This document shows, in pieces, positions 623 through 43,739 of a stretch of 64,000 nt of DNA. The notes below the pieces were generated by a model that was given only the letters and a program-made list of their open reading frames with translations, did not search any database and was not told where the DNA came from. Origin of the DNA: an uncultured bacterium (GTDB lineage Bacteria > Bacillota_I > Bacilli_A > RF39 > UBA660); assembly GCA_949292245.1 (NCBI GenBank), contig CASEYV010000001.1, forward strand, positions 183,313 through 247,312, read 5' to 3'. The stretch's first letter is position 1. Each line of letters opens with the position of its first letter. The translations under genes and the position numbers were made by a program.

Positions 623-1471
623 ATGTCATATAACATTAAAAAAACAAATGGAGAACCATTATTCGGAGAAACAGGATTACCAGAAAATCAAATTGATACT
701 ACAAGAACTCCTGTAGCATTAATTGGTAAATTGACACCAGATTATGGTAATTATCAATCAGAAAATTTTGTTCATATAACTGAAAATTTTGCTAATGATG
801 TTTTTCCAGAAAATCCATTAAAAGGTCAATTTGCATATAATACAACAGATGATTGTGTATATGTCTGTGTTGATGATATATTAAAAACTTGGACTAAAAT
901 GTTGTCTATTAGATTTGAGCAACAAACAAATCCTCAAACTGGTGATATGTATTATGATATTGAAGAAAAGAAATTATACATATTTGATGAAACAGTTGGT
1001 GATTATGGAGATTGGGTATTAATTGGTCCAGATAACTTTAAAAATAAAAAGACAGATTCGGTTGTTTTAACAACTGATAGGGATATAAAATCAGCATATT
1101 ATAATGTAAATTTAAATGTTGATGAAGCAAGTTTAGTAACATTAAAAATAGTTGCTAGAGAAAAAATGAATCCAGAAACAAATCCAGAATATGGTATTAG
1201 AGTTCCAGAATGTTCTTCTTGGGTATATCGCATGATGGCTAATTCTTATAAAATAGAAAATAATATAACAAAAACAGAAATTGTCGGTGACCCTAATTTT
1301 GAATTAATTGGTAGAACATCTGGTGAAGCATTAAATTGGGTTATTAATCCTGTAATATTTGAAAATATGCTTCAAATTAATGTTAGTGGTGTTGGAACAA
1401 CTAATGAATTAATGACTCCAGAAATGGATAATGTTCAATGGGAAATTGATATTGAGATTGTAAAGGTATAA
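623..1471 (+). CDS. hypothetical virion (tail/baseplate module) protein
   Basis: 282-aa ORF with an AGGAA-type RBS just upstream, in the same operon as its neighbours. No family recognised. Confidence 0.5.
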   Translation: MSYNIKKTNGEPLFGETGLPENQIDTTRTPVALIGKLTPDYGNYQSENFVHITENFANDVFPENPLKGQFAYNTTDDCVYVCVDDILKTWTKMLSIRFEQQTNPQTGDMYYDIEEKKLYIFDETVGDYGDWVLIGPDNFKNKKTDSVVLTTDRDIKSAYYNVNLNVDEASLVTLKIVAREKMNPETNPEYGIRVPECSSWVYRMMANSYKIENNITKTEIVGDPNFELIGRTSGEALNWVINPVIFENMLQINVSGVGTTNELMTPEMDNVQWEIDIEIVKV

Positions 1472-2327: not shown

Positions 2328-3359
2328 ATGAAATTTAATGAAAAAAGATATTTTTTAAAAAATTCTAATTTATTAGCCGAAGTTCATAATTCAAAATTAA
2401 CATATTGCTGTTATGAAAAACCAGAATATGGAAATTATGATATTATATGTAAAGATTATTTACTAATAACTCCAAATATAATATTAAATTTTTTTCGCAA
2501 AAATCCAAATAGAGATTATATAATTGTTAGGGTTATGACTGATGAGCATGTTTTACCTTATTGTAAAAATGGAAAAGTAAATTTGCAAGAATTAAAAATG
2601 AAACCATTTAAACATTTTTTAATTTATAAATCTGATTTTGAACGAATATATTCTGAAACGGAAGCTAATTTAGATAAAATTGAACAATTAAATACTAAGA
2701 TTTTAAATATTAAAGAACAGAAAAAAGATAATAATAGAAATATTAGATTAAATCGTTTAGAAAAAGATAAACAGATACCTTTTAAAGAAGATAATAAAAA
2801 ATGTGATGAAGAAATATATAATATAACAAATGAAATAAAAAGATTGTCTGAAACTTTTTCTATTAATATTATGAAAAATGCCAAAGAAGTATTGCGTTCT
2901 CATTGGAATGGAAAAACTATTGAAAGTGGTCATTTTGATGTTTCACAAGGAAAATTAAGCGATGGTTTAGTTTATATGATAATTATGTTGGTTGACCAAT
3001 TTGCTAAATCTGGTAATTGGTCTGGATATACATATTTAGATGATATGAAAGGAGCAGCATTGGTTCATTTATGCGACGTTGCTTTGAAATTTGAAGAATC
3101 TGAATCAACTAATGTATTTTCATATTTAACTCAAATAGCTTCAAATAAATTTACGGCTACTTTAAATAGTGAAAAATATCAAAGAAGAATAAAATCAAAA
3201 ATGATGCAAGCAGTTGGTTATAATCCAACATTTGGTGAAATTGTTGATGAAGAATTTAAAAATATATATTATGATGATGAAGGTAATGAGATAGTTGATG
3301 ATGATTCTGATGATTTAGAAGAATCATCTGATAATGAAACAACCGATGAAAATTATTGA
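2328..3359 (+). CDS. late-transcription sigma factor, T4 gp55 family, with a large internal insertion and an acidic C-terminal tail
   Basis: The C-terminal half LSDGLVYMIIMLVDQFAKSGNWSGYTYLDDMKG...FEESESTNVFSYLTQIASNKF...EKYQRRIK aligns with T4 gp55 [29 protein letters not shown]...[21 protein letters not shown]...ERKEVAKK. The N-terminal KNSNLLAEVHNSK matches gp55 NNKELLQAIIDWK. Confidence 0.75.
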   Translation: MKFNEKRYFLKNSNLLAEVHNSKLTYCCYEKPEYGNYDIICKDYLLITPNIILNFFRKNPNRDYIIVRVMTDEHVLPYCKNGKVNLQELKMKPFKHFLIYKSDFERIYSETEANLDKIEQLNTKILNIKEQKKDNNRNIRLNRLEKDKQIPFKEDNKKCDEEIYNITNEIKRLSETFSINIMKNAKEVLRSHWNGKTIESGHFDVSQGKLSDGLVYMIIMLVDQFAKSGNWSGYTYLDDMKGAALVHLCDVALKFEESESTNVFSYLTQIASNKFTATLNSEKYQRRIKSKMMQAVGYNPTFGEIVDEEFKNIYYDDEGNEIVDDDSDDLEESSDNETTDENY

Positions 3360-3841
3360 GGTTCAATAATTTCTATACCATCATCTTCGTCATAATCATT
3401 TGAAGCATTTTCAACATTTTTTGTAGATGCTTCAAATTTTTTTACTTGTAATTCATGATTTAATTTTTTAAATTTGGCATCTATTTTTGCTAATCTTGCG
3501 TTTAATTTTATATTGAGAAAATTTTGGGCTGATGAAGAAATATCTCCAACCGATTTACCTGTTGTATTTAAAGCTATATCCATTAAATCTGTAAATGCTT
3601 GGTCAGCTTGATTCGCAATTTCATCTAATTCAAAAGAATCTTTATCTAATAATTCCGATTTAGTTAGATTTTTTAATTCCTCATTTTTTTGAACAATAAA
3701 TTTTTTTTGTTCGATTGGTTCTAATTCTGTAATGATATTTTCTTTGTTGATTAATTCTAAAGCATTTTGAATATCAGAACATTCTTCTATTTCTTCATTA
3801 CTTAAAATATTAAATTCTTTATCTAATTTTTTATTTGCCAT
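3353..3841 (-). CDS. hypothetical acidic coiled-coil protein
   Basis: 162-aa ORF with a late motif 38 nt upstream on its strand. It converges on the gp55-like gene with a 7-nt overlap. Confidence 0.5.
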   Translation of the reverse strand: MANKKLDKEFNILSNEEIEECSDIQNALELINKENIITELEPIEQKKFIVQKNEELKNLTKSELLDKDSFELDEIANQADQAFTDLMDIALNTTGKSVGDISSSAQNFLNIKLNARLAKIDAKFKKLNHELQVKKFEASTKNVENASNDYDEDDGIEIIEPQ

Positions 3842-3872: not shown

Positions 3873-3886
3873 TATAAATATTTATA
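3873..3886. promoter_or_regulatory. palindromic back-to-back late promoter pair TATAAATATTTATA
   Basis: TATAAATA at 3873-3880 on the plus strand is 30 nt from the ATG at 3910. TATAAATA at 3886-3879 on the minus strand is 38 nt from the ATG at 3841. Confidence 0.55.
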
Positions 3887-3909: not shown

Positions 3910-5316
3910 ATGGGAATATTAGATAGTATTACAAATAAGTTTTATAATTCAGATGTTGGGCGAGTTTTTTTAGATGATAATAGCTATGCTTCGACACCAT
4001 ATAATTCAAATTTTATACCAGAATATTTAACTACAACCGGACAAAAGAGATTTTCAACTAATTCAGCAATTCCAAATTTACCAAAATTGGAAACTATGTT
4101 TTTTGTATATTTTTCTTTGAATCCAGAAGCACAAGCTATGATTAACAAGAAAAAAGCATTAATAAATTTTTTAGTTAATGCTAATTCTTCTGATACATCA
4201 ACATCAGATGTTCAATCCCAAAATTTAGCTTCAAGAATACAAAGTGGTATGACTTCTTTAATAAATGGAGCAGCTGATTATATAAATTCTGGGTTAAATT
4301 CAATAGCTAAATCATTTACAGGTAAAGATTTGACTTCTCAAGAAAATAAAAATCAAAAAATTCCGAACACAGAAAATTCAAAAACATTTGGGGATTATAT
4401 ACCAGATAAATTTTTATTGAATCAATTATCTTTTGAATTGTCTAAATTTGTAAAAACTATTGATAAACCATCTATTGATTTTGATATCAAAGAATATAAT
4501 GAATATAATCGTAAAAGATTAGTATATGAAAAAATAAATTACGGTCCTGTTAAAATTACATTTTATGATGTTAAAGAAAATCCAGTTCAACAATTTTTCT
4601 TTGCATATTTAAAAATGATTAATAATAACTTTTTATGTAAAGATTATACACATTATAATAAAAAAATTGTTACCAATAAATTTGATACTGATATTACAGA
4701 TTGGGGATTTAGTACTGATTCTAATTTTAGATTGATTGATAAAATTTCTATATGTGAATTTTATATGGATAAAATGATGGTATATACATTAGAAAACCCA
4801 GTAATTAAATCTATAAATTTTGGAACAAATAAAATGGGTTCATTTAATGCAAATGAAATTAATATAACATTTCAATATGAAGGATTTACCAACGATTTAT
4901 TGGATATTGAACCATATAATACTCAATTTGATACTGATAAAACTAAATTAAAATCAATGATAAATTCTAATATTGATGCTAATATGGCTAATTTCTTAAA
5001 TATGAGATATAAAGACGGTGCTTCAATGGGCATAGATACTGCCGTATCTTTTATTAAAGGTGTATTAGATGCTCCATCTGATGAAAGATGGGACAAAATT
5101 AAATCACAAACATTAGATACATTAAGAAAATTAGGATTTTCGGATGAAATTAATTTAACAAATTCATTATTGGAAGATATTGAAAATTATAAAAACTCTG
5201 AAGATAAAGCTAAATATTTGTTAAAATTAACTGATGACCCATCATCTATTTTGGGTCAAGTGTTAAATAACGGTAGCACTTCTTCCGCAGAAGGATTTTT
5301 AAAGATGTTTTTCTAA
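3910..5316 (+). CDS. baseplate/tail-tube-associated protein with a gp19-fold C-terminal half (T4 gp48/gp54-like)
   Basis: The C-terminal pattern KPSIDFDIKEYNEYNRKRLVYEKINYGPVKITFYDVKENPVQQFF...MMVYTLENPVIKSINFGTNKMGSFNANEINITFQYEGF has the tube-family layout also seen in the 10625..11239 protein. Confidence 0.45.
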   Translation: MGILDSITNKFYNSDVGRVFLDDNSYASTPYNSNFIPEYLTTTGQKRFSTNSAIPNLPKLETMFFVYFSLNPEAQAMINKKKALINFLVNANSSDTSTSDVQSQNLASRIQSGMTSLINGAADYINSGLNSIAKSFTGKDLTSQENKNQKIPNTENSKTFGDYIPDKFLLNQLSFELSKFVKTIDKPSIDFDIKEYNEYNRKRLVYEKINYGPVKITFYDVKENPVQQFFFAYLKMINNNFLCKDYTHYNKKIVTNKFDTDITDWGFSTDSNFRLIDKISICEFYMDKMMVYTLENPVIKSINFGTNKMGSFNANEINITFQYEGFTNDLLDIEPYNTQFDTDKTKLKSMINSNIDANMANFLNMRYKDGASMGIDTAVSFIKGVLDAPSDERWDKIKSQTLDTLRKLGFSDEINLTNSLLEDIENYKNSEDKAKYLLKLTDDPSSILGQVLNNGSTSSAEGFLKMFF

Positions 5317-6009
5317 AAATTCATTCCATTTATTATTTGTAGATGTATCGTGCAATATTTTGATAATAAAATTAGCATCATTTAACATAATAGTATTAAA
5401 TGATTTATTATCATATAATTTATTATCATAATAATATTTCCAATATTTGATATTATTATCATTTATACCTGTTTTATAATAATCGTAGAAAAAATCATCT
5501 AAAAATAATGACACTATGTTTGGAGATAAATCTTTATCATTACAAATTTTATCTCCATATCTTTCTTTTATGGATTTATCTTTATTAGAAGCAACAACAA
5601 TCATATAAACTAAATAAGAGTCAAAAAAGTCTATCCATCTGTTTAATAATGATTTGTTTAATTTAGAAAACTCTATTTCCATTTCATTGGTTAATGCAGA
5701 ACCTTTTAATCGTAAATTAGCATTTTTTAATTTATATATACAATTTAAAATGGCTATATTAAAAGAAGTGATATGATTAAATATTTTATTATTCATATAA
5801 TATAATAATAATTCAAATCTTTCTTCTTTAGAAGTATTACAAAAATATATATCAGATAGTAATCCTAAATTATTGATATAATCTAAGAAATTTGTTGTTT
5901 TATCAAATTTTTGAGATTTATCGTAATCAAAAATATATACAGTTTTTGATTCTAAATCATCATCCATATCAGAATTTAATATAGGAGCAGTTACTAATTT
6001 AGTTGTCAT
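5299..6009 (-). CDS. hypothetical protein, translationally linked to the radical SAM gene
   Basis: 236-aa ORF whose start overlaps the radical SAM gene stop by 11 nt. No family recognised. Confidence 0.5.
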   Translation of the reverse strand: MTTKLVTAPILNSDMDDDLESKTVYIFDYDKSQKFDKTTNFLDYINNLGLLSDIYFCNTSKEERFELLLYYMNNKIFNHITSFNIAILNCIYKLKNANLRLKGSALTNEMEIEFSKLNKSLLNRWIDFFDSYLVYMIVVASNKDKSIKERYGDKICNDKDLSPNIVSLFLDDFFYDYYKTGINDNNIKYWKYYYDNKLYDNKSFNTIMLNDANFIIKILHDTSTNNKWNEFLEKHL

Positions 6010-6799
6010 TATTTTTAAACCAAGTTAATATTTCATCAGAATATAAGTATGTATTTTCTGGATAATTTAATTTTAAGTTACTAGATTCTGTATAATTTTT
6101 ATATTTTAAAATATCACCGTCAAATTCTTGATATTTTAGTTCTCCGTTTGGAAACATAAAAATATTTTCATCATCTATATCATTATTTAATAATTTTGAA
6201 ATTATTTTTTCTTTATTTTTTAATTTAAACGAAATGTTCAATTTAGATGATAAAATTAATTTATTAAATGTTGTTAAACAATCATTTTTAGTTATATCAA
6301 ATTCTGAATTTTTATTTTTAAAATAAGGAATAAATTCTACACTTTTTAAATTTGGTAAAACTGATAATTTTTTTAATAAATTATTTGGGTGATATTTAAA
6401 AAGTAATGGAGATAATGTGATAGTTAAATTAAATTTTTTAGGAAATGTTAATAAATTGTTCCATACTTCCATTGCTCTTGAACGAGCCATAAAATCATAT
6501 GATAAATTATATTCTATATCATCACGATAATTTTTAATATCATAAGCATACGATTCAATAGTAATGGGTTTATTAAATGTTTTTAATTTATTGATTAAAT
6601 TATCAAAATATGATTTATTTAAATTCATTGGCTCACCACCAGAAATAATAATATTATCAATTTTATCAATAATAGATGGAAGTATCAAATCTATATTTGA
6701 TAGGTCTAATAAATCATTAGATGATAATTTATCTTTATGTATGCAAAATTGACATGAAAAAGGGCATAAAAAAGATGGATAAATTATTAAATTTTTCAT
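5999..6799 (-). CDS. radical SAM domain protein
   Basis: N-terminal CPFSCQFC (CX3CX2C) at residues 12-19, plus the SAM-binding-like IISGGEPM motif. Confidence 0.8.
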   Translation of the reverse strand: MKNLIIYPSFLCPFSCQFCIHKDKLSSNDLLDLSNIDLILPSIIDKIDNIIISGGEPMNLNKSYFDNLINKLKTFNKPITIESYAYDIKNYRDDIEYNLSYDFMARSRAMEVWNNLLTFPKKFNLTITLSPLLFKYHPNNLLKKLSVLPNLKSVEFIPYFKNKNSEFDITKNDCLTTFNKLILSSKLNISFKLKNKEKIISKLLNNDIDDENIFMFPNGELKYQEFDGDILKYKNYTESSNLKLNYPENTYLYSDEILTWFKNNDN

Positions 6800-6842
6800 A
6801 TATATCTCCTAAAGTAATATAAAATATTTACTTACAGAATTA

Positions 6843-7367
6843 TTATATATGAGCATGTACAAAAATTTCAATAAGTTTTTCTGATTTATCGCATTTATTT
6901 TCTAATGAAATTCCTATTGTTGGTTTAAATAAAAGATAATCTAAAAATGTTTTCTTTTTAGCAACACCGTAAGATTTTGATGTTGTCAATTTATCAAATT
7001 TATTAATTTTTCCTTTAACACGACAAGGAACTTTTCCGCATAAAGCCACTGGTAAATAATCACCTTTATTTTCATTTAAAACAACACCAGGATTTGAAGA
7101 TATTATACCAAAGAAGTTTCTATCATTGGCGACAGTTTTAGTAATTTCTTCTTCTCCACCAAATTTTACTAATGTGCCTTTTGGTAATACTTCTAAAGAA
7201 GAATGTTTATAATATTCTGCTAAATCGGCATAATAAGTAGCGTAAGCGGTACCTCTAATAACTTTATTAAAAGTTGTTACATCGTTAAATGTCCATTGAC
7301 CAGAAATATCTTCATTTTGACTTCTGCGAGTATATTCTGGGTCTGATATGAAACCACTATGAGCCAT
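6843..7367 (-). CDS. stand-alone Peptidase_G2 / intramolecular-chaperone-like domain protein (fibre or spike maturation-type domain)
   Basis: ADLAEYYKHSSLEVLPKGTLVKFGG...FFGIISSNPGVVLN...LPVALCGKVPCRVKG matches the remembered G2/IMC pattern ADYAEYFE...G.vV...ilGVvS..P.vvgn...PVgLlGqV.v.v.G. Confidence 0.45.
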   Translation of the reverse strand: MAHSGFISDPEYTRRSQNEDISGQWTFNDVTTFNKVIRGTAYATYYADLAEYYKHSSLEVLPKGTLVKFGGEEEITKTVANDRNFFGIISSNPGVVLNENKGDYLPVALCGKVPCRVKGKINKFDKLTTSKSYGVAKKKTFLDYLLFKPTIGISLENKCDKSEKLIEIFVHAHI

Positions 7368-7464
7368 AATTATTATCCTTTAAATTAAATAATACCTTTT
7401 TTGTATAAGTATTTATTCATTAATTATCAAATAATAAATAATTATATTAGTTATAAGGATTGAT

Positions 7465-10179
7465 ATGTCAGCTTTAGATAAAAATAAGATATTTTTTGGA
7501 TTAATACATTATGTATTATCAGAACAAAATAATGTTGATTGGATATTAAAAACCAGTTTAGTAAATTTTACAGGTATTAATTCAACAGTTGATAATAAAA
7601 AATATAAACAAAATTCGGTAACTGATGATATTATTGAATATATATATCAAGTTAAACCATACCATGTAACATTTGAACAATTTATTGAAAAATATTCTTC
7701 AAAACAAGATGAAGTTAATGTTACAACACAAGAGCAAAATAATATTACAATGTATATTAGATATGATGCCATAACTTCTGAATTTGAAGAACAAGGAAAT
7801 ATGAATGATTATGAATATATGGACACTCATATGGCTAATAGATTGTGGTATTTTAAACATAATGATTTAAAAGCTGTGTATGGAAATGATGAAGCTATTA
7901 AAGATTATATTAAAGATGTAATGGATTGTCATTTTAAAGGTATAACTGTTGAAGGTGGTGGATTTGATATTGATAAATCAGGTTATGATGCATTTTTATA
8001 TGATTCAACATTATATGATGCTCCAACATTAACAAGTGATTATTGCTTGGTTGATTATAAAGAAAGTTTGCAATATCCATATACAAAAAGTTTTATTAAA
8101 ATTGGTTTAAAAAGTTTTAAATTAGAATCTGAAGATGAAATATATCCAGGTAATATAACAATTTATAGTGATTATAATGGTCAAACCACACAAGTTGAAA
8201 ATTTTAATTTAAAAAATAATATTGTGACATTATTTTATGCTATTAGAAAATATGAAAAATTAACTATAGTTAATACAGTTAATAATATTAGAAAAGGATA
8301 TGTTTTTGTTGGACATCCATTTATTGAAAGCGAAGATGAAACAAATATAAGAAGATTTGTTGATATCGGAACTACTGAATTTGAAATACCGGATGGTAAT
8401 TTGGGTTCAAAAAAAGTAACAGTTCATATTGAATATCCTAACGGTTCAAGAATTCCAACTACAAATTTTGAAAAAATGGATAAAAATGTCGTTATTTATG
8501 ATACTTTGAAAGAAAATTATCATGTTATATTAACTGTTATAGATTATAAACAAATTTATGATAAAATTTATACTTGGGAAGACTGTTATGGTCAAAGTAA
8601 TAATGTAATAGCATTAGATGGTGATAAATTTTTAAGACCATATTATGAAAAAGAAAGACCATCTGAATTATGTGTTTCATATCCTATACATAATTTAATG
8701 ATATATACTGAAAATAAATCTGGAAAAATTAATTCTGTATATAATGCTGATTATAAAGATTGGCAATATAAATTACCAATAACTCAAACATATGTTACTA
8801 AATTAAGTCAAGATTTAAATATAGGTGATAAAATAATTAAAATTGATAATATATCAAAAGTAATTAAACCTAAAATAGGAGAAAATAATCAAGTAATTCC
8901 TGGTAAAATTATAATTGGTTCTGAAATTATTGAATTTTATGAATATGAAATAGGAGAAAATAATCAAGGTATATTAAAATCTATCCGTAGAGCGGTAATG
9001 GGTTCATATTTGGCTGAAAAACATTACAAAGGTGATAATGTATATACTTATAATGAGCAATCATTAGTAGATTGTTCTACAAAATCAATAAGTATTACAA
9101 CATTGGTTAAAGATAATACAGAAAATAAATTTATTATTCCAGGAACATTTAAAGATAATAAAAAAATTGAAATATATAAAAAACCTTATATTAACTTATT
9201 AAGTGATATAACATATTTAGGAAAATATTTTGATATTTCTAGTGATAATGTTAATTTACCTGGAAAAGTTGAATTACAATCCGAATTATATTATAATACA
9301 GTTCATAAAAATCAATCATTTATAATTGAGTTGGCTGAAACACCTTATGAAATTACAGTTGATGATGATTGTTTTTCAATTAAAGAATTGACTGATAAAA
9401 TAACTTCTGTAATAGCAAAAACATTAGGTTTTTATGTTTATGATATGGATGGAAAATTAAAATTTTCAGCAAGTGAAGGTAAATCTATTAAAGTTTATAA
9501 TAAAAATGGAACACCTTTACAAGAAATGTTTGGTAATTCTTTAATGGGTAATAAAAGTAAATTTAATATTTGGTTAGATGGTTATAATGGTATAAGTATT
9601 AATGGTAATGATATATTATGGGGAAATGATGTAAATTCTGTTCAATGGATGAAAGATAATCCAAGACAAGGAACAATAGATGACGCTATTTCTACTATTA
9701 ATAATATGTCAAATGTTAATAAACTAGTTAAAGCATATAATCGTGATGGTTATATAGAAATTGTATCATTAGTGAATGAAGAAATTAGAATAGAAAATGT
9801 AACAAATTTATCAACACCTATTGATAATTTGTCTGAAATAGGTATTGAGCCTATAATTTTTACACAGCCATTATTTAAAAATGACACACAATTAAATTAT
9901 TATCAAGATAATCCAGATAAATTAGGTAATATTTTTATCGATAATGAAAAATTATATTTTAAAAATATTCAAAGAATAATTTCTGGAAGAAATGAATATT
10001 ATAGAATATCTAATTATTTTATTGATAAAGAATATAAAGCCAATGAAGCTAAAATTATGTCTATTAAACCTATATTAGTAGATAAAAATGATTATATTGT
10101 TAATGGTGATGATGATTATATAACATTTAAAACAATGCCATCCATTGGAGAAATAATTACTATATATAATGAAAAATAA
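7465..10179 (+). CDS. large tail fibre/baseplate structural protein
   Basis: 904-aa ORF in the tail module, followed by a fibre-tip-like gene. No family recognised. Confidence 0.4.
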   Translation: MSALDKNKIFFGLIHYVLSEQNNVDWILKTSLVNFTGINSTVDNKKYKQNSVTDDIIEYIYQVKPYHVTFEQFIEKYSSKQDEVNVTTQEQNNITMYIRYDAITSEFEEQGNMNDYEYMDTHMANRLWYFKHNDLKAVYGNDEAIKDYIKDVMDCHFKGITVEGGGFDIDKSGYDAFLYDSTLYDAPTLTSDYCLVDYKESLQYPYTKSFIKIGLKSFKLESEDEIYPGNITIYSDYNGQTTQVENFNLKNNIVTLFYAIRKYEKLTIVNTVNNIRKGYVFVGHPFIESEDETNIRRFVDIGTTEFEIPDGNLGSKKVTVHIEYPNGSRIPTTNFEKMDKNVVIYDTLKENYHVILTVIDYKQIYDKIYTWEDCYGQSNNVIALDGDKFLRPYYEKERPSELCVSYPIHNLMIYTENKSGKINSVYNADYKDWQYKLPITQTYVTKLSQDLNIGDKIIKIDNISKVIKPKIGENNQVIPGKIIIGSEIIEFYEYEIGENNQGILKSIRRAVMGSYLAEKHYKGDNVYTYNEQSLVDCSTKSISITTLVKDNTENKFIIPGTFKDNKKIEIYKKPYINLLSDITYLGKYFDISSDNVNLPGKVELQSELYYNTVHKNQSFIIELAETPYEITVDDDCFSIKELTDKITSVIAKTLGFYVYDMDGKLKFSASEGKSIKVYNKNGTPLQEMFGNSLMGNKSKFNIWLDGYNGISINGNDILWGNDVNSVQWMKDNPRQGTIDDAISTINNMSNVNKLVKAYNRDGYIEIVSLVNEEIRIENVTNLSTPIDNLSEIGIEPIIFTQPLFKNDTQLNYYQDNPDKLGNIFIDNEKLYFKNIQRIISGRNEYYRISNYFIDKEYKANEAKIMSIKPILVDKNDYIVNGDDDYITFKTMPSIGEIITIYNEK

Positions 10180-10624: not shown

Positions 10625-11239
10625 TTAAAAAGCAAGAACTTTTGACATGAGTGTTGAAACAGCACCGTCACCAGTAATAAGAGTACCATCATAATCATAT
10701 AAGTTAGCGTTATCAAATCTGATAGAGCAGTTGATTATTTGGGCATCATGATTACCATTTTCACCATCTTCAGGTTGAGCTTGTGTTAAATAACAACCTT
10801 CCATTACCCAAGTACAAATAGTATTTTGGTGACCATCTGTATTTTCAAATTTAGTAACAAATTTATAGTTTTGAGAAACAGTACCTGTAACTTGTTCAGA
10901 TAAATCACGTTGTCTTTGAATTTGACGATATAATGATTTGTAACCAGCATTATCATATGAGTCATAAACAGTAAATGAAACTGGGTCCCAAGTCCATAAA
11001 CCTGGATAATAAATTGGACCATTTACAGTATCGATTTGTTTATCTTCAAATTTTCCTTTTGGTGTTTGGAATGTTTTCATATCCATTGATACATCTTCAC
11101 CACCGATAGGAGCAGCAAATCCCTCAAATATAACTCTATAACGAGTTTTAAGTTTTGGGAATTTAACTCTTTGATTTCTATCTTCAAGTTTAGTACCAAA
11201 TTTAGAAAGTGAGTTTATATAATCCATTGTAATCTCCAA
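10625..11239 (-). CDS. tail tube protein, T4 gp19 family
   Basis: TWDPVSFTVYDSYDNAGYKSLYRQI and WVMEGCYLTQAQPEDGENGNHDAQIINCSIRFDN align with gp19 TFDDWTVTVMNDEAHDARQKFVDW and EIKGLWPTNVGELQLDWDSNNEIQTFEVTLALDY. Codon usage looks like that of a highly expressed gene. Confidence 0.6.
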   Translation of the reverse strand: MEITMDYINSLSKFGTKLEDRNQRVKFPKLKTRYRVIFEGFAAPIGGEDVSMDMKTFQTPKGKFEDKQIDTVNGPIYYPGLWTWDPVSFTVYDSYDNAGYKSLYRQIQRQRDLSEQVTGTVSQNYKFVTKFENTDGHQNTICTWVMEGCYLTQAQPEDGENGNHDAQIINCSIRFDNANLYDYDGTLITGDGAVSTLMSKVLAF

Positions 11240-11316: not shown

Positions 11317-11324
11317 TATAAATA
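11317..11324 (+). promoter_or_regulatory. late promoter TATAAATA
   Basis: Exact motif 29 nt upstream of the ATG at 11353. Confidence 0.55.
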
Positions 11325-18076: not shown

Positions 18077-18084
18077 TATAAATA
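18077..18084 (+). promoter_or_regulatory. late promoter TATAAATA
   Basis: Exact motif 23 nt upstream of the ATG at 18107. Confidence 0.55.
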
Positions 18085-40807: not shown

Positions 40808-43114
40808 TTAAGCCTTATTATCTTTACTAATTTTTATTTGAGAAAAGTCAGCGACTTTAACTTTACCTGTCATTGGGTCTTTGACGATATATTTTTTATT
40901 TTGCATATCAGAGTCGTCAATACCAACTAATTCTTGATTATTGATAATTTCATTTGAAGTATTGTCAGTTACACCAACTTTTAAATTTGGATTATTATTG
41001 AGTTCATTATTTAATTCTTGTTCTTGTTTTTCTTTTTCTTGTGGTGTAATAACTGTATTTGTTTCCATATTATTTTCTTCTTCGATTAACATGTCGATAT
41101 AATAATGTGAAACACCTTCAAACATTGGTAATGATAAACAATCATTATATATATCATCTACAGCTTCAATAATAGTTTCTTTGTTGTTTGCTTTAACAAT
41201 AGATTCATTAACAAACAAATATCCTTTATTATCATATAAACGATATGATATTGTTTTATTGTTTAAATTAATGGAGCAAGGTATATTATTTTGGATTGAT
41301 TCTTTAAACATTTCAACCATTGTATCAGATTTTTTTCTTTTTTTAGTTTTGCTTCCTAATGGTTTAGCAACTCCAGAAACATTAGCTGAACAAGTTGCTC
41401 CTGCTGAACAAGTTTCTTTAATAGGCAAACCAATAACACCGTTTTTTGTTCTTTCTGGGTAATCACCATTATCGTTTTCATACCAAGAATGGTCAAATAC
41501 TGTATCTTCATTTAATTCTTCTTCATCATCTCCGTCCCAGTAATCTTCTGATTCTTGATTGTCATCATAATGATAATCATTATTGTCATCATAATCTACA
41601 GCTGTCATTGCTATATTTGCTAAAGTTACTTCTGGGTCAATATCATATGCTAATTTAATAATTTTTTGACATATATCAGAGGAAATATGTTTATTTCTGA
41701 TAGTATCATCAAGAATATTAGCAATTACATCTAATGAATCATGTCTATCAAATTCTTCACCTGATTCTTCAAAATAATCATATACTTTATTATCAGTTAT
41801 TGGTTTGTTTGGAGTGTTAAATGAAGACATTTTATATATTAATACTGCATCTGATATATATCTAATTCTTCTATAATCTGAAGATTCTAAATCATCATTA
41901 ACCGATTCATTTAATACTGAATTAAAATAATTTGATAATTGGGATAATAAAGTATTAATTGTTTGTAATTCTTCTATATTGTTTTCTCTTGAATCTGATT
42001 TAACACAATTCATATGCGATGATAATGCAGATAATGCTGAAATAGCTGATGCTTGGTCTGGTTTTTTAAGAATTGGAGCATCAATAGCTGTTGGTGATAT
42101 ATTCATTGGTTGAACAGATGTTGGATAATTTATATTATCACAATTATCACATGGTTCTAAACATAATTCAGCAGTTGGAAGTTCTTCAATATCACCTGTT
42201 TCTTTATTAACTGTAATATTAATAACAGTTGGTTTCATATTATTTAATAAACCATCAAATGTATTTTCATCACATACATCAGAAACTACTTGTTGAGCAA
42301 TACATTCTTCTATTTTAGGTTTACCGTTATTCATTTGGTTTAATCTTGTTTGAGCAATAGATTTTAAATGTTCTAATGTATTAATTTGAATAGTATTTTT
42401 AGCTACTGCTTTGTATTCATCTATCATTTTAATTAATTCTTCTAATGCAGATGGTTTATGAACAGAATCAACCCAAGTTTTAATAGAAGAAATAGTTTGT
42501 TCCAATGGTATTGCTTTTCTTATTTTTTCTTCGTTTATTTCTTCACTTTTTTTATTATCTTCTTTTTTATTTTCTTTTTTTTCTGTTGGACATTCAAAAG
42601 AATTTATAAACATTTCTATATCATTTTTCATTTGATATATTATTTGAGCTAAATTTTGACCATTTACTTGTAATTCTGTATTAAATTTAAGATTAGAATC
42701 ATTTACTTGTGATTGTTGAACCATACCTAAAAATGTATTAGCAACATTAGCATTGGATTTAGTTTTTATTATATTAAAGACACCTTGCATACATTTTGGT
42801 GATTTAATTTTTTTAGATACATCAACTACTAAATTATTTAATTCCATTACTTGATTTAAATTTAATGAAGATTCTTTTAATATTCTTTCTTTTTTAATTT
42901 TATTAAATTGTTCAAGACATAATTCATAATTGCCATCAGCAGAACCAGCCATTATTTCTAATATTTTTTGTCTTTTATTAGATAATGGTAATATATTATT
43001 TTCAGCTATAGTTGTTACGTTTAATAATTCATTAGTATTTAATTCTAATTTATTAAAAAATTTTGAAAATTCGTGTTCAGAACTTGTATTGAATACATCG
43101 TAAATGTTTGTCAT
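40808..43114 (-). CDS. large hypothetical early-type protein carrying the same DYWDGDDEEELNE motif
   Basis: 768-aa ORF whose stop lies 3 nt before the next start. No family recognised. Confidence 0.55.
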   Translation of the reverse strand: MTNIYDVFNTSSEHEFSKFFNKLELNTNELLNVTTIAENNILPLSNKRQKILEIMAGSADGNYELCLEQFNKIKKERILKESSLNLNQVMELNNLVVDVSKKIKSPKCMQGVFNIIKTKSNANVANTFLGMVQQSQVNDSNLKFNTELQVNGQNLAQIIYQMKNDIEMFINSFECPTEKKENKKEDNKKSEEINEEKIRKAIPLEQTISSIKTWVDSVHKPSALEELIKMIDEYKAVAKNTIQINTLEHLKSIAQTRLNQMNNGKPKIEECIAQQVVSDVCDENTFDGLLNNMKPTVINITVNKETGDIEELPTAELCLEPCDNCDNINYPTSVQPMNISPTAIDAPILKKPDQASAISALSALSSHMNCVKSDSRENNIEELQTINTLLSQLSNYFNSVLNESVNDDLESSDYRRIRYISDAVLIYKMSSFNTPNKPITDNKVYDYFEESGEEFDRHDSLDVIANILDDTIRNKHISSDICQKIIKLAYDIDPEVTLANIAMTAVDYDDNNDYHYDDNQESEDYWDGDDEEELNEDTVFDHSWYENDNGDYPERTKNGVIGLPIKETCSAGATCSANVSGVAKPLGSKTKKRKKSDTMVEMFKESIQNNIPCSINLNNKTISYRLYDNKGYLFVNESIVKANNKETIIEAVDDIYNDCLSLPMFEGVSHYYIDMLIEEENNMETNTVITPQEKEKQEQELNNELNNNPNLKVGVTDNTSNEIINNQELVGIDDSDMQNKKYIVKDPMTGKVKVADFSQIKISKDNKA

Positions 43115-43731: not shown

Positions 43732-43739
43732 TATAAATA
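43732..43739 (+). promoter_or_regulatory. late promoter TATAAATA
   Basis: Exact motif 37 nt upstream of the ATG at 43776. Confidence 0.5.

Follow-up and report, generated by a model that had tools for sequence, protein, structure and literature searches.

Why is a radical S-adenosylmethionine (SAM) enzyme encoded antisense within the tail gene block of a phage, directly next to a protein with a fibre-maturation domain? The question is raised by positions 5299–7367 of a 64,000-nucleotide stretch (contig CASEYV010000001.1 of assembly GCA_949292245.1, positions 183,313–247,312), hereafter the window, which is the virion module of an AT-rich jumbo phage with a G+C content of about 24%. Three minus-strand genes form the unit, i.e., a Peptidase_G2/intramolecular chaperone (IMC) protein of 174 residues (6843–7367), a single-cluster radical SAM enzyme of 266 residues (5999–6799), here called the r164 type, and an accessory protein of 236 residues that belongs to phrog_20767 (5299–6009). 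The radical SAM stop and the start of the 236-residue protein overlap by 11 nt (5999–6009), which suggests that the accessory protein is translationally coupled to the enzyme. An earlier note on this DNA had given the three open reading frames (ORFs) with their sizes, coordinates and overlap, and the ORF list bears them out. The trio is a reduced or minimal form of a widespread, uncharacterised phage module. We propose, with a probability of roughly 45%, that the late-expressed enzyme and its accessory protein modify a fibre or other virion protein and that the trio constitutes a minimal fibre-linked maturation module.

Conservation of the unit

We compared the loci L005–L012, L017–L026, L033, L034, L036 and L037, which represent 14 distinct lineages. 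In 14 of 14 lineages, the radical SAM gene came directly after the G2-like gene, down to radical SAM identities of 35–38%, and from this recurrence we conclude that the unit is real and under selection. The 236-residue gene was kept in 13 of the 14. It was cleanly deleted in L009/L010, where the radical SAM stop lies 5 nt from the end of the convergent neighbour. A lack of synteny among relatives, which the earlier note had named as speaking against the unit, was hence not found. The flanking genes vary among the lineages, with neighbours of 904, 671 or 833–942 residues and a tail-tube-like gene that is either present or replaced. In L033, the gene of the 236-residue family (7312–8046, minus strand) runs opposite to the radical SAM gene.

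The radical SAM enzyme

Pfam matches of the 266-residue protein cover its N-terminal 90 residues only, with Fer4_12 at 25.1 bits (cut-off 22) and Radical_SAM at 23.1 bits, below the cut-off of 29.5. The cluster motif CPFSCQFC, a CX3CXΦC sequence, spans residues 12–19 (6743–6766, minus strand), and C12-x3-C16-x-F/Y-C19 was invariant in 24 homologues. The SAM-binding motif GGE is found at residues 54–56 (6632–6640, minus strand; GGEPM at 54–58), with G54 and G55 invariant and Glu or Asp at position 56. The homologue alignment also keeps S100-Y-D102-F and a few Pro and Trp residues. No cysteine besides C12, C16 and C19 was conserved across the 24 homologues. The enzyme therefore lacks a second cluster and is a minimal radical SAM protein, as had been proposed.

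The AlphaFold model (predicted local distance difference test, pLDDT, 90.7) carries a radical SAM core fold. Its nearest Foldseek relatives, SuiB, SkfB, anSME, CteB, EpeE, BlsE and viperin (TMq 0.56–0.62), are radical SAM cores matched at a probability of 1.0. Among these nearest folds, peptide- and protein-modifying cores support an action on protein. The homologues form 28 clusters, several of them on metagenomic contigs of 270–390 kb. Orthologues were found in the cultured phages RSF1 (ORF081), Atu_ph07 (gp164 region), Phosso (#283) and DT01 (PA10_00059) at E values of 1e-23 to 1e-35, and no cellular homologue was found in the genome contigs scanned with the radical SAM alignment. In scans of IMG/VR, patterns for the single radical SAM or 236-residue proteins gave nothing; alignment-based scans worked.

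NCBIfam assigned no subfamily. The best scores were about 21 bits for NrdG2 and KamA against cut-offs of 131–199, and all matches were confined to the cluster-binding N-terminus. One could also assign the enzyme to the glycyl-radical activases or to the nucleotide enzymes of the NrdG/QueE type, as suggested by the N-terminal position of its cluster, the GGEP motif, the label "organic radical activating enzyme" that JGI gives to one homologue and a best, weak NCBIfam match to NrdG2. However, NrdG2 reached 21.6 of the required 131 bits within residues 12–92, and NrdG 17.9 of 126, likewise in the N-terminal region. By fold, the pyruvate formate-lyase activating enzyme ranked 27th and QueE 29th. 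The QueE model rSAM_QueE_gams gave 11.7 bits against 300 (E 0.15). No glycyl-radical enzyme and no queuosine pathway genes were seen nearby, and neither partner protein carries a conserved Gly-radical motif. This assignment, which the earlier note had named as fatal to its proposal, is largely refuted and we regard it as highly improbable.

Viperin-type assignment fared similarly: the PADLOC pVip model matched residues 12–76 only (E 1.3e-4), and viperin folds gave TMq values of 0.57–0.60, similar to those of unrelated radical SAM cores. C-terminal auxiliary-cluster cysteines of the SPASM/twitch type were absent from the enzyme.

The wider fibre-linked module

As tblastn and hidden Markov model (HMM) searches showed, Atu_ph07, Phosso, RSF1-like phages and Pseudomonas phage DT01 carry orthologues of both the radical SAM enzyme and the 236-residue protein jointly within their multi-radical-SAM clusters, with E values of 1e-8 to 1e-23 for the 236-residue HMM. 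Atu_ph07 and Phosso carry a G2-terminated fibre directly upstream of the cluster on the same strand. The order of the module is fibre, cupin, radical SAM/SPASM enzyme, a protein of about 180 residues with a C-terminal CHxS repeat, the 236-residue family and three radical SAM enzymes, the last of which is the r164 type of the window. The gene for the CHxS tail hence sits between the first radical SAM gene and the 236-residue homologue. The first enzyme, gp171 in Atu_ph07, is a SPASM-type maturase related to DynA, PapB, DarE and anSME (SPASM model TIGR04085, 30 bits, cut-off 27), and gp172 is a JmjC/cupin protein.

The CHxS-tail protein belongs to phrog_35144, which is annotated as of unknown function, and looks like a substrate within the full module. 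Its C-terminus reads CHSSCHASCHNSRSRR in Atu_ph07 gp170, CHTSCHASCHSSRSRR in Phosso #289, CHTSCHTSCHSARGRR in DT01 PA10_00065 and CHSSCHSSCHGSRGRR in RSF1 ORF071. Genes of this family lie at L013:7119–8009 (minus strand; Atu_ph07 gp170), L014:6415–7335 (minus), L003:841–1377 (plus), L041:6902–7462 (plus) and in L042–L121. A degenerate DNA pattern for the CHxS tail matched at least 120 viral contigs. Among the matches listed, to which the counts in this and the next two paragraphs also refer, CHxS-CHxS-CHxS-R-G/S-R-R was the exact C-terminus in 96 of 96 ORFs. An uncultured CHxS-tail protein found no match in cultured phages by tblastn, and gp170 was rejected as a paralogue of the 236-residue family (hhalign probability 0.2%).

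Module genes were counted in single-tail loci with enough sequence on the relevant side. Upstream of the CHxS-tail gene, a G2-type fibre was present in 23 of 33 loci, a cupin in 36 of 42 and the radical SAM/SPASM enzyme r171 in 41 of 45. Downstream, the 236-residue family was found within 4.5 kb in all 22 loci, r168 in 21 of 22, r165 in 9 of 11 and the window's r164 type in 5 of 5. The linkage between radical SAM genes and fibres that the earlier note had singled out as unusual is hence real and more general than proposed. With an r164-type orthologue and a phrog_20767 protein adjoining a fibre-type gene, the window carries the minimal form. A literature search found no paper discussing the module.

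In a double-tail variant (L042, L053, L058, L059, L062, L075, L081 and 13 more), two tandem CHxS-tail genes of about 127 residues stand directly behind a G2 fibre (7/7). A gene of the 236-residue family usually follows 2–4 kb downstream (6/9), and almost no radical SAM or cupin genes are near. This raises the question how, or whether, the CHxS tails are modified there.

In RSF1 and DT01, the fibres that precede the cassette were also considered as G2-terminated proteins. The G2 terminus is absent, and both share the C-terminal motif ...G.LYA.V...W..VWPP.WQ in its place (RSF1 ORF067, L041:3140–4261, plus strand; DT01 PA10_00068, L162:2175–3749, minus strand). As these fibre ends differ, the constant of the module is a fibre-type gene and not the G2 domain. 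The fibre-maturation domain is thus a recurrent partner of the enzyme, as the 14 lineages attest, but not an obligatory one. The L035/L038 clade was set aside as a third independent G2–radical SAM linkage and lends loose support only, with non-orthologous radical SAM genes 5–9 kb downstream. In L038 (10001–20879), a 303-residue fibre with anchor and IMC domains lies behind a gp177 homologue and a giant protein of 3748 residues. On the same strand, the fibre is followed by seven genes of unknown function and by two radical SAM genes (332 and 458 residues) that are not orthologues.

Virion proteins of Atu_ph07

Published mass spectrometry (MS) of Atu_ph07 virions lists gp170, gp176 and gp177 as virion proteins, and does not list gp164–gp169, gp171 and gp172 (PMC6102473, Table S5). 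In the same table, gp170 (31.9 kDa) reaches its highest abundance in gel band 1, together with proteins of 87–127 kDa, and other Atu_ph07 proteins of about 30 kDa peak in bands 7–8. The 66-kDa gp176 peaks in band 4 with proteins of 51–56 kDa. On our own reading, which is not a claim of that study, gp170 at the top of the gel may be a form that is covalently linked or resistant to sodium dodecyl sulfate (SDS) and heat. Similarly, the position of gp176 would fit the loss of an IMC domain of about 15 kDa, again our interpretation and not that of PMC6102473.

These data bear on a further explanation, in which the gene order is merely inherited and the radical SAM enzyme, alone or together with the 236-residue protein, targets a small molecule, a nucleotide, tRNA or DNA, e.g., in a metabolic, DNA-modification or counter-defence role. 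In its small size and single cluster, the enzyme resembles viperin, QueE and the activases. Viperin-type matches exist, if weak (pVip as above; Atu_ph07 orthologue with viperin_w_prok, E 1e-7), viperin ranks high by fold, and the RSF1 cluster holds two dihydrofolate reductase genes and 2-oxoglutarate (2OG) oxygenases. The lack of an identified substrate protein in the window also suits this explanation. Against this, subfamily scores reach 21–31 bits with cut-offs of 131–180 (viperin for the Atu_ph07 orthologue, 31 against 180), and the gene lies in a virion block driven by late promoters (see below), tightly packed with fibre genes in every lineage. Moreover, the other members of the module are maturase types and a substrate-like protein, and the enzymes are absent from Atu_ph07 virions while their neighbours are structural. 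We therefore consider a small-molecule role unlikely. Because the module partners are SPASM-type maturases and a virion protein with a CHxS tail, protein modification is favoured over nucleotide metabolism, as the earlier note had judged from the location of the genes.

The 174-residue mini-fibre

The G2/IMC-like nature proposed for the 174-residue protein was confirmed by a match of residues 25–100 to Pfam PF11962 (Peptidase_G2; E 8.9e-8, 32.2 bits, cut-off 25). The protein consists of a conserved N-terminal segment (residues 1–16, of the MAYSGFISDPEYTRR type), an ITGxWxF fibre turn (residues 17–38) and the IMC domain (residues ~39–174). Residues ~34–160 match fibre ends, i.e., PHROG tail fibres, PA5oct gp359 (a virion protein by MS), Atu_ph07 gp176, Phosso #292 and fibres of Campylobacter phages. 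The homologues form 118 clusters, nearly all of 168–195 residues. With a mean pairwise identity of 60%, compared with 39% for each of the other two, this is the most conserved protein of the trio, and the N-terminal part from MAYSGFISDPEYTRR to ITGxWxF is well conserved.

A predicted self-cleavage motif, D48-L-A-E51 (7215–7226, minus strand), is invariant in an alignment that includes the Atu_ph07, Phosso and PA5oct fibres. The Asp and Glu residues of this G2 motif reportedly have a catalytic role. The motif aligns in register with S691|D692-F-A-E695 of phi29 gp12, and the crystallised auto-chaperone fragment 3gqh begins at gp12 D692. Mature phi29 gp12* ends at residue 691 (PMC6542822). By this alignment, a cut at A47|D48 would release a 47-residue N-terminal product.

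A 282-residue virion protein (623–1471, plus strand) has an N-terminal anchor domain that matches residues 15–127 of gp176 (phmmer, E 1.3e-13). The shared motif is YG..(A)ENFVH(L)(L)ENFA...NP..GQ, in the window ...YG..SENFVHITENFA...NPLKGQ.... The anchor is fused to a G2/IMC terminus in Atu_ph07 gp176, Phosso #292, PA5oct gp359 and the 303-residue protein of L035. In the clade of the window, different genes on opposite strands, about 5 kb from each other, encode the anchor and the IMC domain. The 282-residue protein is possibly the other half of a split fibre together with the 174-residue protein.

The 236-residue accessory protein

Pfam gave no match to the 236-residue protein, nor did NCBIfam at E ≤ 1, and phrog_20767 is annotated as of unknown function. 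The predicted structure (pLDDT 89.9) had no structural relative in the PDB (best TM 0.23, E 0.1), and a profile search of the family against PDB sequences found nothing at E ≤ 10. Relatives in BFVD were uncharacterised phage proteins only, including Atu_ph07 gp169 and a 357-residue protein of RSF1. An exhaustive profile search retrieved 262 representatives, mostly of about 240 residues, from 1.84 billion proteins. Across this broad family only P9, Y29, S32, Y44, Y71, F174 and N213 are invariant. These are few residues and none is catalytic, we hence favour a role as adaptor, chaperone or substrate over that of a metalloenzyme. The broad alignment was too divergent for scanning cellular genome contigs. 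Fusions were inspected as a Rosetta-stone clue and rejected; they are few and add Pro/Glu-rich low-complexity N-termini with no Pfam domain. Such extensions, of 130–330 residues with a recurring PPWE(D/E)(L/I)P, occur in P0220, P0253, P0259, P0264, P0265, P0275, P0290 and P0309.

The 236-residue protein could itself be the substrate, matured by the radical SAM enzyme, e.g., at the invariant D-Y-x-x-S loop (Y29/S32), and then acting in assembly. In almost every context it is found alongside r164-type enzymes, and it is linked to the enzyme by the 11-nt coupling and has invariant Tyr and Ser yet no conserved catalytic residues. The gene was lost in L009/L010 with the enzyme kept, however, and it is kept in double-tail loci without radical SAM genes. 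Its homologue was also not detected in Atu_ph07 virions (PMC6102473). We consider this quite improbable.

Late promoters

The window contains 51 copies of the core ATAAATA, of which 25 sit 10–70 nt upstream of a same-strand start, where about 1.4 would be expected. In this position it precedes the genes of the portal, tail tube, hub, giant protein and others (e.g., 3873–3880, 11317–11324, 18077–18084, 20637–20644, 24064–24071 and 43732–43739). This enrichment fits the gp55-like late sigma factor of 343 residues encoded at 2328–3359 (PHROG match). Judged from these sites, the phage uses T4-type late promoters. The sigma-like portion of the gp55-like protein covers residues 135–319, and its N-terminal extension is unexplained.

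A T4-type late-promoter-like element, AATAAATA (7410–7417, minus strand), lies 42 nt upstream of the G2-like start. Its position is conserved in 5 divergent loci, with an exact TATAAATA in L007. A second, degenerate element, AGTAAATA (6825–6832, minus strand), lies 25 nt upstream of the radical SAM start and is followed by AGGAG (6806–6810). The TAAATA before the radical SAM gene is invariant in 5 divergent loci, as ATAAATA in L007 and L009 and as an exact TATAAATA in L011. This second conserved position suggests that the trio may be two nested transcription units and not the one operon described in the earlier note. Transcription starts are predicted at NATAAATA. A sigma-70 scan of the unit was uninformative (28 sites, 29.7 expected), and no terminator was predicted. 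The trio is probably co-expressed late with the structural genes, possibly from two nested starts.

A possible separate promoter upstream of the radical SAM gene is also one of the points in favour of two unrelated neighbours. The 174-residue protein would then be a trans-acting or vestigial trimerisation chaperone or a baseplate stub for the 904- or 282-residue proteins, and the radical SAM/236-residue pair would have a separate function. Anchor and IMC domain are split here and fused in relatives, which suits this explanation, and PA5oct and Campylobacter phages have G2-terminated fibres without a nearby radical SAM gene. Yet the G2-like and radical SAM genes are adjacent in all 14 lineages despite varying flanks, and a G2-type fibre stands directly before the cassette in the 23/33 and 7/7 wider-module loci counted above among the matches listed. 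We regard unrelated functions as rather unlikely.

A model for the unit and its weighing

In the model that we propose, a T4-type late promoter would drive expression of the mini-fibre, i.e., a 47-residue segment joined to a G2 intramolecular chaperone. After trimerising the mini-fibre, the G2 domain would detach itself by a cut at A47|D48. The radical SAM enzyme and the translationally coupled 236-residue protein would act as a working pair, by analogy with HxsC and HxsD (see below). This pair may install a radical-mediated covalent modification on a late or virion protein during tail or fibre assembly. The leading candidate for the substrate is the adjacent mini-fibre, followed by the 904- and 282-residue fibre-type proteins.

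Several observations weigh against this model. The window enzyme lacks a recognisable RiPP recognition element (RRE; RiPP, ribosomally synthesised and post-translationally modified peptide) as well as an auxiliary cluster. Neither the operon nor the rest of the 64-kb window, itself part of a genome of about 270 kb, encodes the CHxS-tail protein, the r171 SPASM enzyme or the cupin, and no CHxS tail was found on the clade's IMG/VR contigs scanned with an AT-codon pattern, so the part of the module with the most readable role is the part missing here. The enzyme can do without the 236-residue protein, as this gene is lost in L009/L010. Conversely, the 236-residue protein may work for the fibre instead of the enzyme, since it is kept in double-tail loci nearly devoid of radical SAM genes. 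In RSF1 and DT01, the r164 orthologue stands behind a fibre without a G2 domain, and no G2-type protein accompanies it. The window copy of the radical SAM-proximal promoter element carries two mismatches. Finally, synteny conserved among related virion modules can be inherited without a shared function. The post-translational modification that the earlier note had suggested is hence partly supported, by module partners, folds and synteny, and the clade appears to lack the CHxS tail.

A broader generalisation seems doubtful to us, if worth stating. Tailed phages may possess RiPP-like machinery for virion proteins, in which fibre-linked radical SAM enzymes would modify or cross-link fibre-associated proteins. 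The target in the full module would be the CHxSCHxSCHxSRGRR tail. In the window, the target would be a 47-residue mini-fibre that a self-cleaving chaperone sets free, i.e., a precursor with a self-removing "follower", and a cluster-only radical SAM enzyme with an adaptor of new fold would modify it.

Enzymatic radical chemistry on the structural proteins of phages is an almost unexplored field. Should the cassettes modify or cross-link fibre or baseplate parts, this would be a new layer of virion maturation, with consequences for stability, receptor binding or DNA delivery, and would give a function to many genes that jumbo-phage genome papers annotate only as "radical SAM domain-containing". 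The module is common and graded, from the full form through the enzyme-free double-tail form to the three-gene minimum. Compared with the trio, the wider CHxS-tail module is the more remarkable finding, and cultured phages allow it to be tested directly. The three-gene minimum is the simplest system for asking what the r164-type enzyme and its accessory do.

Genes around the unit

The unit was originally placed between baseplate and fibre genes, which holds only approximately. It is flanked by a plus-strand tail-tube-type protein of 468 residues, probably gp48/54-like (3910–5316), and by a protein of 904 residues without annotation (7465–10179, plus strand). The latter is transcribed divergently from the unit with its own late promoter (7433–7440) and found no family match in Pfam or PHROG. 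Within the clade, its gene is conserved beside the unit, with 671–942 residues in relatives, and the protein is a candidate substrate or partner of the unit. The window also encodes a giant virion protein of 2227 residues (phrog_10938), a baseplate hub, the portal and the major head protein. Since further minus-strand genes break up the tail block, at 3353–3841 and at 10625–11239, where a second tail-tube-type protein is encoded, the antisense orientation is not peculiar to the unit.

The tail-tube-like gene (3910–5316, plus strand) and the 236-residue gene (5299–6009, minus strand) overlap convergently by 18 nt (5299–5316), and no terminator-like hairpin was found on either strand at this overlap. 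The only other CX3CX2C-like string in the window is CLEPCDNC at about residue 318 of a 768-residue ORF (40808–43114, minus strand). This ORF was rejected as a radical SAM enzyme, as the string lies too far from the N-terminus; it has no PHROG match. Close DNA relatives among cultured phages were sought by a near-identity search of the region, which gave no match.

Comparison with known systems

The domain of the 174-residue protein resembles the Peptidase_G2 chaperones of phi29 gp12 and of Klebsiella phage Dpo31/36, with a Pfam score above the gathering threshold and D-x-A-E in register with gp12 D692/E695. It differs in what precedes it, i.e., 47 residues compared with a fibre or spike of 300–700 residues, and the predicted mature product would be a tiny stub.

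Campylobacter phages CP220/CPt10 (PMC2853527) are likewise AT-rich, T4-like and rich in radical SAM genes, and the CPt10 tail fibre gp106 ends in a G2-type domain related to that of the window. The earlier note had pointed to AT-rich T4-like phages as a precedent for the enzyme. This precedent did not hold, as the CP220/CPt10 clusters comprise five radical SAM genes, each cluster with a putative glycine amidinotransferase, and do not adjoin the fibre. Searches of CP220/CPt10-type phages by tblastn with the window radical SAM and 236-residue proteins gave no match. With their different gene set, we rejected these clusters as the same system.

True orthologues of the radical SAM enzyme and the 236-residue protein, in conserved order, are found in the jumbo phages RSL2/RSF1/FLC6, Atu_ph07, Phosso and pPa_SNUABM_DT01. 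Their clusters hold 4–7 radical SAM genes, cupin/2OG oxygenases and the CHxS-tail protein, in contrast to one enzyme and its accessory in the window. Genome papers on RSF1-like phages list the radical SAM genes by annotation only (PMC8066314, PMC5468394), and a comparative review of jumbo phages does not discuss them (PMC7824862). No reported function of the multi-radical-SAM clusters came up in our literature search.

SPASM maturases (SuiB, SkfB, CteB, PapB, DarE, DynA, anSME; TIGR04115) include several of the folds nearest to the window enzyme, and a true SPASM domain is present in further enzymes of the full module. The triple CHxS is formally a CXXX repeat, and gp168 weakly matches the CXXX-repeat maturase model TIGR04115 (E 1.4e-3). 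In contrast, the window enzyme has neither SPASM/twitch cysteines nor an RRE, and its family scores lie far under the cut-offs. Moreover, the presumed phage substrates are full-size virion proteins and not leader–core peptides.

In the HXS antiphage system, radical SAM enzymes and a small accessory protein mature a His-Xaa-Ser-repeat protein, with HxsC–HxsD as core complex (PMC13128918). The full phage module resembles HXS (HxsA–D; TIGR03976–03979) in its paired radical SAM enzymes, in the accessory gene beside a substrate-like gene and in a substrate-like protein whose three (C)HxS repeats precede basic residues. Membership of the trio in HXS is ruled out by the model scores, i.e., 17.3 bits for the window enzyme against an HxsC cut-off of 268, 32 bits for gp171 against an HxsB cut-off of 370 and no match of the 236-residue protein to an HxsD model, and no ORF with an HxS or CHxS repeat was found in the window. 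HxsC also has a second cluster, unlike the window enzyme. The phage CHxS repeats stand at the extreme C-terminus of a virion protein, whereas HXS repeats belong to a periplasmic peptidoglycan-binding effector, and the reduced unit of the window is without any repeat protein. HXS defence blocks phage DNA entry by means of its radical SAM-matured HxS-repeat protein, and one may ask whether related chemistry serves phage and host at the same stage of infection. The trio is of a kind already known, a reduced radical SAM protein or peptide maturation cassette, placed in a phage-fibre context that has not been described before.

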